64,000 nt of DNA from contig CAWDSK010000005.1 in the NCBI GenBank assembly GCA_963804995.1, positions 192,001 through 256,000 of the forward strand, in the 5' to 3' direction. The position numbers were made by a program, and so were the translations under genes. Positions 12,608-36,600 of the stretch are shown here, piece after piece. The notes beneath the pieces are model-generated. The model ran no database searches. It saw only the letters and a program-made list of their open reading frames with translations, and was not told where the DNA came from. The stretch comes from an uncultured Acidobacteriota bacterium. GTDB taxonomy: Bacteria; Acidobacteriota; Terriglobia; UBA7540. Positions within the stretch are counted from its first letter, which is position 1, and each line of letters opens with the position of its first letter.

Positions 12608-13326
12608 GATTGCGGCATGGGGGAATAGGTATCCCGCCCTTTCAGGGCTGGCGGCAAAATTTGGGGTAATCTAAACCCAGGCCTTCAGCCTGGGCTTTGG
12701 AATTTCGCCCCTTTGGGGCTAAGGGGGAGATTGCGGCGTGAGGGAACACCTATCCCGCCCTTTCAGGGCTGGCGGCAAAATTTGGGGTAATCTAAACCCA
12801 GGCCTTCAGCCTGGGCTTTGGAATTTCGCCCCTTTGGGGCTAAGGGGGAGATTGCGGCATGGGGGAATAGGTATCCCGCCCTTTCAGGGCTGGCGGCAAG
12901 ATTTGGGGGTAATCTAAACCCAGGCCTTCAGCCTGGGCTTTGGAATTTCGCCCCTTTGGGGCTAAGGGGGAGATTGCGGCATGGGGGAACACCTATCCCG
13001 CCCTTTCAGGGCTGGCGGCGAAATTTGGGGTAATCTAAACCCAGGCCTTCAGCCTGGGCTTTGGAATTTCGCCCCTTTGGGGCTAAGGGGGAGATTGCGG
13101 CATGGGGGAATAGGTATCCCGCCCTTTCAGGGCTGGCGGCAAAATTTGGGGTAATCTAAACCCAGGCCTTCAGCCTGGGCTTTGGAATTTCGCCCCTTTG
13201 GGGCTAAGGGGGAGATTGCGGCATGGGGGAACACCTATCCCGCCCTTTCAGGGCTGGCGGCGAAATTTGGGGTAATCTAAACCCAGGCCTTCAGCCTGGG
13301 CTTTGGAATTTCGCCCCTTTGGGGCT
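12608..13326 (+). repeat. Tandem array of six ~121-bp palindromic REP units, alternating A/B variants
   Basis: Unit starts 12608, 12729, 12850, 12972, 13093, 13214; AATAGGTAT in units 1/3/5 vs AACACCTAT in units 2/4/6. Confidence 0.95.
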
Positions 13327-14003
13327 GAGCGGGTAGCGCACAGGTGCGCGTGTTGTGCGTTCCCGTGTGGCCCTTCCCCGCGCGCTCACGCGAACCAGCA
13401 GCCGGGCACCAAAAGACAGTGGCTACTGGCGCGTGACGGGAGAACCGGGGAACGGGACACGGGATTCGGGATACGGGAGCAAATCCAGGGCTCGGGAAGT
13501 AGAGTGGCGAGTGACGAGTCGACAGGCCGACTCCCGAGTCCCGTTTCCCGTCCTTGGCCCCCTCGCAGTGCCCCCGACACTCCCCCGCTTCGTTTATCGG
13601 CGGTTTTTGGGGATGAGATGAGGATTTTCCCTGGCGGGGCGGAAAGCAGCAGCTTCGCCCCGTACCGGGCGGTACGGGGCTTCGCGGCCGCACTCCAAAG
13701 CGCCTGCGGCGCAAGTGACCCCTCATCCGGCCCGCGGTGGCTCAACCCTACCGAGAGCCTCGTCGGTGGCCAGTTCGACGTTTCCTCTTCGGTTAAGCAA
13801 GCGTAGCGCGGACCTGGTCTTTTAGGTCCGCGGCTTTTCGTGCCTGCCAGACGCGAATTAAAATCTCAATGCTGCGGGCGTTTATTAGCAGGCCGTACTA
13901 TGCTATGGTGCAAAGCTGTCTCCTTTCGTAAAATACATACTTGCATTTCGCGTTTCGAATTTCGCGTTTCGAGTTTCGAATTTCGACTTATGATGGTTCC
14001 CGA

Positions 14004-26627: not shown

Positions 26628-26843
26628 GCCCCCGCGGCAATAATTTCCGCTGATTTCTCACCAGCCCAGGCTTTTTCTAATAAGCCACCCGAAGCAGCGG
26701 GATAGAATTGGAATTCATAGCCCTCTCCGAGGGGAGAGGGTGGACCGCCGCCGGCGCTTTCATCAGCCGGGGCGGGCCGGGTGAGGGGTCACTTCATCAC
26801 CAGACGTGGGGGGTGGAGGTCGAGCTCCGCATTGCGCGCTCTC

Positions 26844-27060: not shown

Positions 27061-29880
27061 TCAGCGTTTTCCCCCCTGACATTTTGTTATGTGCGCCATC
27101 CCGCCCTTCTCGCTGCCTTCTGCTTTCCGCTTTCTGCCTTCCGCCTTCTGCCTTCCGCCTTCTGCCTTCTGCCTACTGTTCTTTCCAAAGTGCGCGGCGG
27201 GTTCGAAAGCTTTCTCAAGCGCCTGCCGGTAAGCTTCCACGTCGTAGCCCCTCCAACCTTCCCACAGAGTCCAGGCGCGCACGCGATCGTCGATGAATGT
27301 GGAGTCCGCATCGGTGATGATGAATTCGATGTTCTCACCCGGGCGCAACTTCACACCCGCGCGGTCCAGTTGCCGGGCGGCGATGGCGGTCACGCTGTTC
27401 TTCTGGTAGCTGGCGGGAGCTTTGGTAAGGCGTTTGCGAATGACCAGTTCTTCCGGAGCTACGCTACCATCCACGAGGCGCGCCACGTATTTTGCGTAGA
27501 CTTCCCGAGCCTCGCAGAGTTTGGCGCAATAGGTTGTGAAGTCGCGCGCCTCCGCCAAAATCGTCAGCACCTCAAGCTGCATCCTCGAGACCAGCGGCGG
27601 CGTGTCGTGCCGGCGGCATTCCAGCCCGCGCACTTTCAGCTCGCCCGCCTCCGACACGCAGAAAAAGCGGTTGGGCACCGGGATTTCCGCGCACTGCTTG
27701 GAAGGCAGGAAGACAACGTAGCGATAGACGGCCTCAAGCGCCAAGGGCAGGCCGGTGATTTGTTCGATTTCCTGCGCGAGCCGCAGATAGTCCGCGCGGC
27801 TGGGGACTGGGGGCTGGGGAACAGCCGAAACTCGAAAATCGAAATTCGAAACTCGCGAGGCAGTTACCGAATTTCGAGTTTCGGCCTTTTCGTAATCTCT
27901 GATTTTCGATTGCTGATTGTCGATTGAACCCGTCAATAATCGACCATCGTCAATCGTCAATGGAAAGCGAGTTTCGAATTTCGAATTTCGAGTTTCGGCT
28001 TTTTCGCAATTGCCGACTCCTGACTCCTCACTCCTAACTCCTGCCCCCTGCACATAGAGCGAATCCACCAGCGCATGCAGCACGCGGTAGCCTCGCTGCT
28101 CCGCCACCTCTTTCGCCACCAGCAATTTTTCCCGCGCCAAGGCATTGATGGCCTCGTGCGCTTCGATTTTCCCAAAGCGCGCGTTTTTGTAGCCGGTGTA
28201 CCCGAAGCAACAAACCAGCAGCCACTTCAGCACGTCGCGCCGCTGTTTACAGGCTGCGGGGTTCGGGATACGGGCTACGGGACACGGGATACGGGGTTCG
28301 GGATACGGGGTTCTGGAATCGGGAATCGGGATACTGGACACAAGATGTGGAGTTTGGGATTCTGAATTCGTGGTCCGGGGCTCGGGATTCGAAGTGGGAG
28401 AGGGGAGATTTGCCACAGAACTTTCTCCCTGCATCCTGAAACCTGGAGCCCCAATTCCGAATCCCGAATTCCGAGCCTTCAGCCCCGCAGGTTGGATTTC
28501 CAACCCCGCATCCCGTATCCCGTATCCCGTGTCCCGTGTCCCGGCCTCCGTATTCCGTGCCCCGTATCCCGTGTCCCGTATCTCCTTGTACTTTCGCCGC
28601 TTGGCGATGAGGCGCTCAACCACCCGGCTGGTGATGCCGCGATGCTGCTGGCAGACGCGATAGCCGAGTTCCGGCACGCGCGGCGCCTGCGGGCAGCACG
28701 GACAGTTCACCGTTTCCGGCGAAATATTGAAGCGCGCCATGATGCTGGGGAACTCGCTGACGAAATCCAGTTCCGCCACGTTTTCAAAGAAGCCGAGGCG
28801 CGGAGGAAAGACCAACCCGCCGCGGTCCGCAATCAGCAGCTCATCCGGGAACTTGGGGCTTTCCGGCTCCGCCTTTTGCGCCGGGATCAGCACTCCGTCC
28901 CGCCAGGCGAGTTCCATCTGCATATAGGAAATTCCCGTGCCCGGGGTGGTGCGGCAGGCGTATTGAACCGGCAATTTCGTGATCCGCACCAGTTCCCACA
29001 GGCCTTCCTGCTGGCACTGGTCGGCGCCAAAGGAATTCTGCGTGTCGATGTGCAGCCGCCCGAACAAGGTCGTGGTGCTGTCCTTGAACAGGATGCGCCC
29101 GTAGCTCATGTAACTGCGCGAACGCGTGCTCGCGACCGGCACCTGATCGCGATTCAAGGGCAGGTGGATGTGGCGCCGCTGGGCTTGCCGCAGCAAACTC
29201 GGCAGCAGGACGGAATCACCCCATTCGGTCACCAGCACGTCCGGGTCGTGGACGCGCAGCAGGCGCTCGAAAGTCGCCGCGACGGGTTGCTCAGAATCAT
29301 CCAGCACCTGCCAGTTGTCTTCGATGGCAACCTCCACAGCGCCGTGCCGCCCGTGCCGCGGATTGACGTCAGAGAGCCCTTCCAGGCGCATCCGCATGGT
29401 TCGGACGGGTGGCCGCTCGTAGTCGGTCCGCCACTCATCGTCGCGGCAGTCGATGGCCTGGATCTCACCCGCGGCATTCGCCTCAATCTCCACTTGCGCC
29501 AGGGGGAAAAGATTTTTCCCCCAACAGTACATCGGCGCCAGCATCAGGTCAGAGTCGTACAGGATCAGGTCGCTATCGAAGCGGCGGACGAAGCGCGCCA
29601 GCGGCGCGAACAGTGTGGGATGGTGCGCGGACACCTGGAGCACCCGCAGCGGTTGCCGGTCCCAGATGTTCTGCCGCTCCGTCAGTTGGCAGCTCACCCG
29701 AGCGCGGGCCGGGAGCGTTTCCGCCAGACGCGCCAGTTGCCCTTCCGGTCCCTGCACGTAAAAGCAGGGGAGGAAAGCGCTGTCAATCAGCCGGCGGCGC
29801 CTCTGGTTCGGCTCGATAAGCCACAGCACCATCCCCTGCGGGCAGGGGTAAAGGTTGAGAATCCATCCACTGAGTCTCAA
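27061..29880 (-). CDS. Family B DNA polymerase, PolB2 type, with two large in-frame repeat-derived inserts
   Basis: DRGGL, DFVSEFPSI (motif A), KWLLVCCFGYTGY (B), HALVDSL (C, PolB2-type), RGLECRRHDTP. Confidence 0.88.
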   Translation of the reverse strand: MRLSGWILNLYPCPQGMVLWLIEPNQRRRRLIDSAFLPCFYVQGPEGQLARLAETLPARARVSCQLTERQNIWDRQPLRVLQVSAHHPTLFAPLARFVRRFDSDLILYDSDLMLAPMYCWGKNLFPLAQVEIEANAAGEIQAIDCRDDEWRTDYERPPVRTMRMRLEGLSDVNPRHGRHGAVEVAIEDNWQVLDDSEQPVAATFERLLRVHDPDVLVTEWGDSVLLPSLLRQAQRRHIHLPLNRDQVPVASTRSRSYMSYGRILFKDSTTTLFGRLHIDTQNSFGADQCQQEGLWELVRITKLPVQYACRTTPGTGISYMQMELAWRDGVLIPAQKAEPESPKFPDELLIADRGGLVFPPRLGFFENVAELDFVSEFPSIMARFNISPETVNCPCCPQAPRVPELGYRVCQQHRGITSRVVERLIAKRRKYKEIRDTGYGARNTEAGTRDTGYGIRDAGLEIQPAGLKARNSGFGIGAPGFRMQGESSVANLPSPTSNPEPRTTNSESQTPHLVSSIPIPDSRTPYPEPRIPCPVARIPNPAACKQRRDVLKWLLVCCFGYTGYKNARFGKIEAHEAINALAREKLLVAKEVAEQRGYRVLHALVDSLYVQGAGVRSEESGVGNCEKAETRNSKFETRFPLTIDDGRLLTGSIDNQQSKIRDYEKAETRNSVTASRVSNFDFRVSAVPQPPVPSRADYLRLAQEIEQITGLPLALEAVYRYVVFLPSKQCAEIPVPNRFFCVSEAGELKVRGLECRRHDTPPLVSRMQLEVLTILAEARDFTTYCAKLCEAREVYAKYVARLVDGSVAPEELVIRKRLTKAPASYQKNSVTAIAARQLDRAGVKLRPGENIEFIITDADSTFIDDRVRAWTLWEGWRGYDVEAYRQALEKAFEPAAHFGKNSRQKAEGGRQKAEGRKRKAEGSEKGGMAHITKCQGGKR

Positions 29881-30130
29881 GGTTTATTCCTAACGCCGCC
29901 TCGATTTTGCGCAGCCGGATTTCGTGGTCCAGCTCCACGGCCACGTGAATGCCGTGCATCGCGTCCACGGGAAAGTGATAGGTGCAAGCCTGCACGTAGA
30001 GGCGCACGCGATTGAACATCGCCTCCAGATACACTTGCTCTTCCTGGCGCAGGGCGCGGCCAAAGCGCTGCTTCCAGGATTGCAATTCCTGTTCGATCAG
30101 GTCACGAAAGGTGGCAACGGTTCGTCCCAT
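29783..30130 (-). CDS. Small helical protein, arCOG07300-like PolB2 partner
   Basis: MGRTVATFR...W...FGRALRQEEQ; AGGAGG RBS. Confidence 0.75.
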   Translation of the reverse strand: MGRTVATFRDLIEQELQSWKQRFGRALRQEEQVYLEAMFNRVRLYVQACTYHFPVDAMHGIHVAVELDHEIRLRKIEAALGINLETQWMDSQPLPLPAGDGAVAYRAEPEAPPAD

Positions 30131-30270
30131 GGGTCCTCCTTCCAGGGGCTGGGGACTGGGCGTCAGGATCGAAACTCGAAATTCGAAACTCGAAATTCGG
30201 TGTCCCGCTCACGAGTTTGCCCGAGACTCCGTCGGGGCAAGGGGGCGAATTTCGAGTTTCGTCCTTTCCC

Positions 30271-31035
30271 CTAGCCCCCAGTCCCCAGCACCTTGTCCTT
30301 CTGCATCAACCCCAGCCGGCCCTGGGCATCGAGCTGAAACTTCCAAAGTTCGGTCGCGGCCGCGCAGGTCTGGGTGAAAAAGAGCTTGCGGCGCGCGGAC
30401 GGTTGGAAACCGGAGACGGAAGAAAACAGCGCCACCGTCAAAGGTAGCGCAGAGTTTTTGGGACTCTGCGGCGCGTCAGGCCCGAAACTTGAAACTCGAA
30501 ACTCGAAATCCGGCAGCTCGCTCACGATTTTCGAGTTTCGATTTTCGAGTTTCGCCGTTTCCCCAGCACCCAGCCCCCCGTCCCTGCCGGCGAGGACGCA
30601 GCGTCGGAGGTGCCCAAGCGCCTGCCGGAAGGTCGCCTGCGCGTCGGCATCGCGCACGTCCTCATCGAAATAAAGCTCGGGGAAGGCGGTGACCATCAGA
30701 ACCTGGGCGGGAAAGTCCGCCAGAAATTGGGGCACGCGACTGATCAGCTCGGTGAGTTGAAAACAGGTGAAGGCCCGCGCGATCTTGATCTGCCGGCTGA
30801 TTTGCGCAAAGGGGATCCCGCGCTGTTCCGCCAGCCGCGCGATCAGCCGCGGGTTGGCTGAGTTCGCGCCATCGAGAAACAGAATCCGCTTGCCCTCCCG
30901 CGCCAGGCGTGGCAGGAAGTAGTGGCTGAGCCGGGGCGCGTCGTACTCCCCGTGAAAGACCGCCAGGCCCTGCGGCGGCAGATGCCAGGGCTGGGTCAAG
31001 GCAGCCGGCAGCGAAGTTGGCCCCTGCATGAACAT
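30271..31035 (-). CDS. Inactivated RadA/RecA-like protein
   Basis: ILFLDGANSANP, IARAFTCFQL, YFDEDV; no intact Walker A; repeat-derived insert. Confidence 0.75.
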   Translation of the reverse strand: MFMQGPTSLPAALTQPWHLPPQGLAVFHGEYDAPRLSHYFLPRLAREGKRILFLDGANSANPRLIARLAEQRGIPFAQISRQIKIARAFTCFQLTELISRVPQFLADFPAQVLMVTAFPELYFDEDVRDADAQATFRQALGHLRRCVLAGRDGGLGAGETAKLENRNSKIVSELPDFEFRVSSFGPDAPQSPKNSALPLTVALFSSVSGFQPSARRKLFFTQTCAAATELWKFQLDAQGRLGLMQKDKVLGTGG

Positions 31036-31064: not shown

Positions 31065-31093
31065 AGTGTAGGCGAATAAAAAGCGAAAGTCAA
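31065..31093 (-). promoter_or_regulatory. Sigma70 promoter with TTCGC-N6-TTCGC direct repeat in the spacer (putative SOS-type operator)
   Basis: TTGACT-TTCGCTTTTTATTCGCC(17)-TACACT, 30 nt upstream of the operon. Confidence 0.7.
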
Positions 31094-31135: not shown

Positions 31136-31388
31136 CCAAGTGACCCCTCACCCGTCCCGCCCCGGCTGATGAAGACGCCGGCTGCGGTCCACCCTCTCCC
31201 CTCGGAGAGGGCGGTTACTCAAGGTAAGGTGCGGTGCCGTAGCTACCCTGAGATCATAGCCTTCTCCCCAGGGGTCGCAGATCCGCCGTGGCGGAAGAAG
31301 GTGGCTGACGTAGGAAGCCGGATGAGGGGTTACTTGCACCTGCAGGGCGTCGAAACAATTTGCAACTCATAAATTCAAAAACTATTAG
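31136..31388. mobile_element. MITE/REP composite copy (same core as 39178-39435)
   Basis: ccaagtgacccctcacccgtcccgccccggctgatg... ending aattcaaaaactattag. Confidence 0.75.
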
Positions 31389-35860: not shown

Positions 35861-36600
35861 GCGGACTCCTTGCGCGTGGCAACTCGACCCGTAATCATGC
35901 CCCCCATGCGGTTCAAAAATCCTGCAAGACAAACCATGGCAATGTGGATGACGAGGAATGCCACAAGTAAAACTGCCGCGCAGAAGTGAAGGGTTCGCGC
36001 CGATTGGTGACCGCCGAGGATATTGACCATCCAAGGGAATACCGCGGTAAGCCCAAGGGACATGGCAAAACCCGTCCAGATCATGAACGGAAAAAGGACG
36101 AAGATAACCCCCAGGTAAGTCATTCTCTGAACCGCGTTATACGTCTGGGATTCAGCGTCTGTAGGGCGCCCCGGCCATAAGCGAATCGAAACTTTCTGCG
36201 CGATGGAGAACCAGGAGAAGTCCCCCCGGGAGGGCAGCAAATTTTTGCGGAAATGCCCCGTGAAGAGGCCGTAGACGACATAAACCAGGCCGGTCAAAAT
36301 ACAAATCCAGGCAGAGAGGAAATGGAGATGCCGGCCCCAGCCGGACTGGCCCCTGGATACGTATGGAATGGGCAAATCGATGAGAGACGGAGTTAACCAG
36401 GAGCCCGTTTCCCCCCAGTAGAGAGTGGGTTGAACCAGGAGAATGGCCGTACCACTAACCAGCAAGCCGATAAACGCAAGCGTCGTGAGCCAGTGGGTGA
36501 CCCGGACAACAACCGAGTGCCGGGGCGAATCGACAAGAGTCGGATCTTGAACGCCGAGCGCTGGCACACCAAGCCCTGGGATGTAGGCAGATTGCGACAT
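35857..36600 (-). CDS. Cytochrome b membrane partner (Ni-hydrogenase cyt b type)
   Basis: RVTHW, HLHF, YNAVQR, ARTLHF, HI haem ligands. Confidence 0.85.
   Translation of the reverse strand: MSQSAYIPGLGVPALGVQDPTLVDSPRHSVVVRVTHWLTTLAFIGLLVSGTAILLVQPTLYWGETGSWLTPSLIDLPIPYVSRGQSGWGRHLHFLSAWICILTGLVYVVYGLFTGHFRKNLLPSRGDFSWFSIAQKVSIRLWPGRPTDAESQTYNAVQRMTYLGVIFVLFPFMIWTGFAMSLGLTAVFPWMVNILGGHQSARTLHFCAAVLLVAFLVIHIAMVCLAGFLNRMGGMITGRVATRKESA

Follow-up and report, generated by a model that had tools for sequence, protein, structure and literature searches.

Why should a DNA polymerase gene carry two long in-frame inserts built from inverted heptamer repeats, and could the polymerase itself be the source of such repeats? 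These questions are raised by polB2, a family-B polymerase gene in a predicted iRadA-PPB2-PolB2 operon of an uncultured Acidobacteriota bacterium of the class Terriglobia. The gene lies in a 64,000-nt stretch (assembly GCA_963804995.1, contig CAWDSK010000005.1, positions 192,001 to 256,000), called here the window. The inserts are likely to be gene-less hairpins of dispersed heptamer families, placed in frame at two tolerated sites and translated into disordered passenger loops. This reading builds on the location of the inserts, their conserved frame, their hypervariability, the repeat families they have in common with the rest of the genome, and the independence of heptamers from the presence of polB2.

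Two heptamer inserts in polB2

The gene and the repeats associated with it are listed below.

27061..29880, minus strand: polB2, family-B polymerase, 939 aa from a TTG start (open over 939 codons; DNA_pol_B match)
28249..28581 (about), residues 434-544, minus strand: insert 1, nested heptamer hairpin at the finger tip (Tandem Repeats Finder, TRF; arm pairing; homolog alignment)
27799..28047 (about), residues 612-694, minus strand: insert 2, nested heptamer hairpins in the palm after motif C (TRF; homolog alignment)
30445..30600, minus strand: in-frame heptamer hairpin within iRadA, about 46 aa net (comparison of loci; RNA fold)
30144..30293, no strand assigned: heptamer hairpin between iRadA and PPB2 that also covers the final iRadA codons (TRF; arm pairing)
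27115..27178, minus strand: GCAGAAG tract, in frame as the C-terminal tail of polB2 (TRF; homolog alignment)

An earlier note on this DNA had described an in-frame pair of inserts in the polymerase, and the open reading frame (ORF) bears this out, being free of stops. Ortholog alignment recovered the insert claimed before motif B (28258-28581), with the arm heptamers named there, and that claimed after motif C (27800-28044), with all four of its unit families. The tract in the RadA-like gene (claimed at about 30470-30590), the paired heptamers of the spacer (30145-30300) and the C-terminal GCAGAAG tract were likewise found.

Insert 1 directly precedes motif B (K552) and adds about 99 aa net. 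Arrays of GGGATAC/GGGACAC face arrays of CCCGTAT/CCCGTGT, forming arms of 116 nt that are 72% complementary. There are 119 aa between its anchors, compared with 18-177 aa in homologs, the shortest having 18-20 (best 120 of 1301 homologs, also below). Insert 2 begins five residues past the motif C Asp, D606, and adds 78 aa net. It spans 88 aa between anchors, a distance of 10 aa in 66 of the 120 homologs and of 13-107 aa in the other 54, and TRF finds in it the families CTGGGGA, CGAAACT, CGATTGT and GACTCCT. The iRadA insert measures 56 aa between anchors vs 7-11 aa in the shortest relatives. At the C-terminus, many polB2 homologs terminate a few residues past the last conserved motif.

All three inserts fold well as RNA, with z-scores of -8.59 (insert 1), -6.37 (insert 2) and -3.45 (iRadA); no shuffled sequence folded as well (0 of 100, 0 of 200 and 0 of 200, respectively). 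Within the window, internal arrays are confined to polB2 and iRadA, and three other arrays inside called ORFs sit at ORF ends.

Several familiar explanations were considered and rejected. An intein was dismissed because polB2 has no match to a Pfam intein (Hint) family and the inserts have no conserved termini among the 120 homologs. A self-splicing intron or other known structured RNA was set aside because the five weak Rfam matches all stay under the gathering score and the reading frame is kept. A pseudogene was rejected on the near-invariance of motifs A, B and C and on a frame that survives changes in length. An assembly artefact is unlikely, because independent assemblies bear related inserts at the same sites.

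Insertion sites and polymerase structure

When a short homolog was aligned to Deep Vent PolB, insert 1 was found to start at Pfu 467/468 and insert 2 at about 549-550; Deep Vent numbering agrees with the Pfu landmarks R461, K465, Q484 and K488. As described in PMC3061061, Pfu PolB split at 467/468 shows wild-type-like behaviour, and five T4-like gp43 polymerases are naturally split in the fingers, at the finger tip, a region that is a hotspot for insertion elements. The same source places the natural split of Mth PolB about 83 aa beyond the Pfu 467/468 position. By this alignment, both inserts occupy positions where PolB tolerates even a break in the chain.

In an AlphaFold2 (AF2) model, the predicted local distance difference test score (pLDDT) falls below 50 over both inserts, which lie between two finger helices and after a palm strand. 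This low confidence lends soft support to predicted disordered loops. The best fold matches of the polB2 model are archaeal PolB. A single-sequence AF2 model of a short homolog (pLDDT 37.7) was uninformative.

Reading frame of the inserts

Frame was scored at five sites (those of inserts 1 and 2 and three further ones, one of them in iRadA) in 41 DNA loci and the window. Loci were located by peptide patterns, with no intact ORF required, and inserts of at least 30 nt were scored. Lengths were multiples of three in 99 of the 102 inserts, over 73 distinct site-length pairs (five sites, 42 loci). Three stops occur in frame, vs 141 and 165 in the other two frames. Since adding or losing a single 7-nt unit changes the frame, this pattern requires selection on read-through. 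Among arrays lying deep in ORFs across the genome, 7 of 58 have a stop triplet in the coding-strand unit; for arrays elsewhere the counts are 306 and 275 of 939 on the two strands. Together with the known PolB split sites, the frame and stop counts support the suggestion in the earlier note that the inserts are tolerated loop expansions.

Turnover of the loops among homologs

A tree of close homologs was built from 69 of the 120 proteins. Homolog pairs with cores of 97-98% identity show differences of up to 75 aa at one site, and one pair in that range reads 121/46 vs 46/83 aa. A sister polB2 sequence of 94% identity has no insert 1. In the closer clades the loops hold heptamer hairpins; in distant homologs the same loops, including the finger tip, hold unrelated non-heptamer palindromes, which we take to be of the repetitive extragenic palindromic (REP) type. 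Across relatives, repeats or palindromes are found in the 5' leader, in iRadA and the spacer after it, in four loops of polB2 and in the tail. Such turnover would be the work of slippage combined with nested insertion and the exchange of alleles.

Heptamer repeats in the genome and their relation to PolB2

Among TRF periods in the genome, seven is the most frequent (1215 of 4229 rows), and 472 of 679 heptamer clusters are intergenic, with 26 internal to genes. For the insert arms, BLAST gives as many as about 100-120 overlapping matches elsewhere in the genome, and for the centre of insert 1 none; only the arms recur, and insert lengths vary freely.

Of the 15 genes of the four-helix-bundle family TIGR02436, 10 are bracketed by heptamer arrays, vs 101 among 5450 called genes; families of both insert 1 and insert 2 are represented in the bracketing units. 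These cassettes resemble the polB2 inserts in arm families and mirror layout and differ from them in that the insert loops hold no gene. When insert 1 was aligned with a TIGR02436 cassette, units were found in common and no colinear homology. None of the 15 TIGR02436 matches of the genome lies on contig C5, and there is no four-helix-bundle ORF between the arms of the polB2 inserts. Two heptamer patterns were counted in 52 of 60 genomes listed, and the counts track TIGR02436 gene number (rho 0.89 in 21 family genomes, 0.68 in all 52).

The earlier note had also offered, as one of three readings, that the operon is mechanistically linked to generating the 7-mers, and had named heptamer-rich relatives lacking the operon as evidence against it; such relatives were found. 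polB2 is present in 40 of 151 genomes of the class. The most heptamer-rich relative, G031 (99% complete; 371 pattern matches vs 239 here), has no polB2 match among the 150 of 237 candidates scored and no PPB2 match. A second one, G040 (96% complete; 44 pattern matches), has no match to polB2, PPB2 or DnaE2. Outside the family, 16 of 18 polB2-positive genomes have at most one match to the two patterns, and within it polB2 presence does not predict the counts (medians 19 vs 3, p 0.57). PolB2 was thus rejected as the heptamer source: provided that the G031 and G040 assemblies truly lack the operon, the heptamer richness of a genome does not need it.

A second DnaE-family gene was seen in 11 of 15 polB2-negative vs 1 of 26 polB2-positive family genomes, so that the two are nearly mutually exclusive. 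In all three carriers tested this gene is DnaE2 (NF004225 above the cut-off), which suggests that PolB2 and DnaE2 mutasomes replace each other.

Inserts in other genes

That no other gene here has internal inserts, as previously claimed, is true of the window and fails for the genome, where a second detector found internal heptamer tracts in 14 of 5141 called genes. These include MetG, NrdJ, Mfd, HemD/E, BacA, a hydantoinase and three prophage genes. G031 has such tracts in 7 of the 535 genes of an 800-kb portion, namely Lhr, UvrA (a case already known), GltB, NrdJ, AcrB, an HMGL-like protein and a kinase. The operon is thus special in degree, not in kind.

For comparison among family loci, the best 30 loci and hand-picked partial ones were taken and four duplicates removed. 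Inserts were found in polB2 in 19 of 26 loci (an undercount, as polB2 loci are often partial), in a LexA-boxed DEAH helicase in 22 of 35 (17 of 28 heptameric), and in UvrA in 5 of 35. PolA carries inserts in 9 of 36 loci, none heptameric, and two of its 11 'inserts' stem from one mispicked ORF (L216). DnaE shows no large insert, with 3063-3081 nt in 35 full-length matches as judged by match span only. An array lies nearby at 3 of 6 LexA-box loci vs 966 of 5450 genes overall. These figures give hints of a bias of inserts to damage genes, drawn post hoc and confounded with length and dispensability.

Some of these genes deserve separate mention. The DEAH helicase (G000:C5:137884-140220, where G000 is the genome of the window; L157-L186, L260-L266) has two variable loops with mostly heptamer-hairpin inserts. 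A Mu-like prophage (G000:C5:301000-320000, L047) has heptamer tracts lying in frame in three genes, those of a muramidase, the I protein and an unknown 394-aa protein (about 128 codons). PolA of L247, L253 and L254, from three family genomes, carries non-repeat inserts of 48-71 aa at one site. In dnaE of this assembly (G000:C7:34151-37223) two frames meet near 35950, likely an assembly indel.

The iRadA-PPB2-PolB2 operon

The remaining features of the operon are as follows.

29870..30130, minus strand: PPB2 (arCOG07300-like), 86 aa, N-terminal MGRT (ORF and motif as described in PMC11791011)
30271..31035, minus strand: iRadA, Rad51-like, 254 aa (weak Rad51 match and operon position)
31065..31093, minus strand: sigma70-like promoter, -35 at 31093-31088, 17-nt spacer, -10 at 31070-31065 (sequence)
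31074-31088, minus strand: LexA-type direct-repeat box between the -35 and -10 hexamers (sequence; recurrence elsewhere)

Sequence identifies the ORF at 27061-29880 as a PolB2; its iRadA-PPB2-PolB2 operon is preceded by a LexA-type box, and the order of the three genes on one strand is the PolB2 mutasome layout described in PMC11791011. The database call for polB2 starts 16 codons downstream and gives 923 aa. Its catalytic residues are Asp 372 in motif A, Lys 552 in motif B and D606 in motif C; alignment to Deep Vent D541/D543 shows the first Asp of the DxD substituted and the second, D606, retained. In an alignment of 58 homologs, D606 never varies and motifs A, B and C hardly do. Named homologs come from Terriglobia and other Acidobacteriota. 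The Rad51 match of iRadA is weak (E 0.0029, under the Pfam cut-off, beginning at profile position 60); in the mutasome as defined, iRadA is a Rad51-like protein that lacks the N-terminal domain and has an inactive ATPase.

The box was also seen 5' of iRadA in several relatives and, in this genome, 5' of lexA, the DEAH helicase and three other genes (6 of 9 among the matches listed; 15 in total). It resembles the GTTC-N7-GTTC form of the LexA box described for alphaproteobacteria in PMC3323433. Through the box it has in common with lexA, the operon would be expected to be damage-induced. At lexA itself (G000:C3:409625-410712), heptamer arrays lie between the box and the start codon and directly after the stop. 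An adenine methyltransferase-like gene (G000:C1:627597-630392) also stands behind a LexA-type box and is patchy, occurring in 3 of 41 genomes.

Repeats or palindromes lie between promoter and start codon in L004, L005, L008, L010-L012 and L014-L017 and are absent there in the window. A non-heptamer palindromic repeat is found in intergenic DNA on both sides of the operon (window 26720-26790 and 31140-31210), of the same type as the finger-tip loop filler of distant homologs. Further away, at 12608-13333, a 121-bp unit with internal palindromes is repeated six times in tandem with 95% matches.

Comparison with known systems

The system agrees with the PolB2 mutasome of PMC11791011, as described there, in gene order, the MGRT start of PPB2, the loss of the first DxD Asp, a D(K/R) motif, association with LexA, and archaeal PolB as the nearest solved structures. 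It differs in that its subunits bear up to five hypervariable repeat-derived loops. A term search of the main text of that paper gave no mention of repeats or disordered inserts, and no literature on repeat inserts in PolB2 was found, subscription papers and supplements being outside the search.

Rickettsia palindromic elements (RPEs), as presented in PMC2229807, are likewise dispersed hairpin repeats lying in frame within conserved genes, and an RPE-bearing Gmk enzyme is reported there as translated and active. In common with RPEs, the present repeats form in-frame hairpins and have dispersed intergenic copies (472 of 679 clusters). However, RPEs are a single family with a unit of 105-146 bp, whereas here nested multi-family 7-mer arrays have no fixed length or ends and go on changing within a given loop.

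The repeat class itself is that of the heptamer simple sequence repeats described for Xanthomonas (GGGAATC) and Nostoc (GGGGA(C/T)T) in PMC4692102 and for Beggiatoaceae (TAACTGA) in PMC4679880. According to these descriptions, they too have 7-nt units, degenerate arrays and convergent inverted pairs, mostly intergenic and some within ORFs. In contrast to them, dozens of unit families coexist here, stacked in the catalytic domains of one enzyme complex. The split PolBs of PMC3061061 (T4-like gp43, Mth PolB and Pfu SQ) are broken at the same two places, the finger tip and just past motif C. Here the chain is continuous, and the site is filled by a predicted translated repeat instead of a break.

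Origin of the inserts and alternative explanations

We propose that the heptamer hairpins throughout the genome would stem from a process linked to TIGR02436 cassettes and not to PolB2. A hairpin may then enter a permissive loop, where selection would leave only in-frame, stop-free versions, and a seeded loop would be remodelled further through slippage, nested insertions, deletions and the exchange of alleles. As a LexA-repressed, accessory and rarely expressed unit, the operon may be a hotspot because low expression would make additional loops and mRNA hairpins cheap.

Several observations weigh against this reading. Three loci break frame (L005, L016 and L038, the last shifting frame several times along the gene); the loci are kin, so that the 102 inserts are not independent events; and we infer translation of the inserts from selection on frame. 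Taken as a whole, the AF2 model is weak (mean pLDDT 60.9, predicted template modelling score 0.48), and its pLDDT drops below 50 in conserved parts of the palm as well. The connection with TIGR02436 is a correlation between related genomes that covers two heptamer patterns only. Against a same-genus genome, the sole heptamer-type indels among 13 events in 384 ortholog pairs (1.2 Mb) were those of polB2, with indels judged by eye and the polB2 locus chosen for inclusion. The operon thus bears a heavier load than uniform tolerance would predict, which low cost may explain.

It is conceivable, although unlikely, that the inserts are linked to damage through targeting or tuning: translated hairpins would favour damage-induced units, or would be kept there to damp a mutagenic polymerase, either through hairpins in the mRNA that act as RNase III sites or slow the ribosome, or through proteolysis of disordered loops. 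This would suit the occupation of leader, iRadA, spacer, four polB2 loops and tail in relatives, the arrays flanking lexA itself, and the share of polB2, iRadA, Mfd and three prophage genes among the genes hit here (6 of 14). It would also suit the family controls, with inserts in 22 of 35 LexA-boxed helicases and 5 of 35 UvrA, none heptameric in 36 PolA and none large in DnaE. However, the pattern was drawn post hoc with few controls, taken as the best 30 loci and hand-picked ones; long proteins are favoured, and MetG, GltB, BacA, AcrB and a kinase are hit as well. Moreover, arrays stand near only three of the six box-bearing loci (966 of 5450 genes overall), insert sequence and length are never conserved, and the 94% identical sister has no insert 1. 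Rather improbable, in our estimate, is the bolder proposal that heptamer and REP-type hairpins spread during DNA damage and prefer SOS-induced units. The PolB2 operon, where as many as eight sites are colonised, would then be their main sink, and the load an evolvable mutasome damper acting via mRNA cleavage, ribosome slowing or protease-sensitive loops.

Removal or bypass at the RNA level (RNase III-type excision, splicing or ribosome hopping), restoring a polymerase of normal length, was also raised in the earlier note and is very unlikely. Both inserts do fold as long closed hairpins, and their arm families also bracket genes of TIGR02436, a family whose first members came from excised intervening sequences of 23S rRNA. 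Yet removal would lift the constraints on frame and stops, and would therefore not hold 99 of 102 variable inserts in frame; it is neither needed nor supported. Homolog inserts have no conserved junction sequence and no Rfam family at gathering score, and since rRNA intervening sequences are cut without re-ligation, an mRNA so treated would be destroyed. We find it highly improbable that the PolB2 mutasome, or any SOS mutasome, generates the genome-wide arrays. In its favour, no other locus in the genome comparison is as heavily loaded as the operon, and PMC4692102 and PMC4679880 describe polymerase slippage as a proposed origin of excess heptamers. G031 has DnaE2 in place of PolB2 and so does not speak against the wider, any-mutasome version. 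Against a mutasome source speak the 371 matches of G031 without polB2 or PPB2 and the 44 of G040 without polB2 or DnaE2, the near-absence of the patterns in 16 of 18 outside-family polB2 genomes, the family medians given above, and the non-heptamer palindromes that fill the same loops in other clades. Just as hard to credit is a decaying operon, with inserts marking a dead or dying gene, or inserts produced by assembly error. Frameshifts at an insert in 3 of 42 loci and the apparent dnaE frameshift in this assembly would fit. Opposed to them are the near-invariant motifs A, B and C in 58 homologs, a frame kept despite constant length change, and related inserts in many independent assemblies.

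Implications

If the reading of tolerated passenger loops holds, the finger tip and the post-motif-C loop of these polymerases absorb 10-170 repeat-derived residues that change faster than the amino acids of the core. They would provide a natural allelic series for probing loop tolerance, at sites where PolB survives splitting, and a fast marker for the growth of unexplained bacterial heptamer repeats. An excess of inserts in damage-induced genes, if true, would tie the spread of repeats to the SOS response. PolB2 is removed as the heptamer source, and the four-helix-bundle cassettes are pointed to instead.

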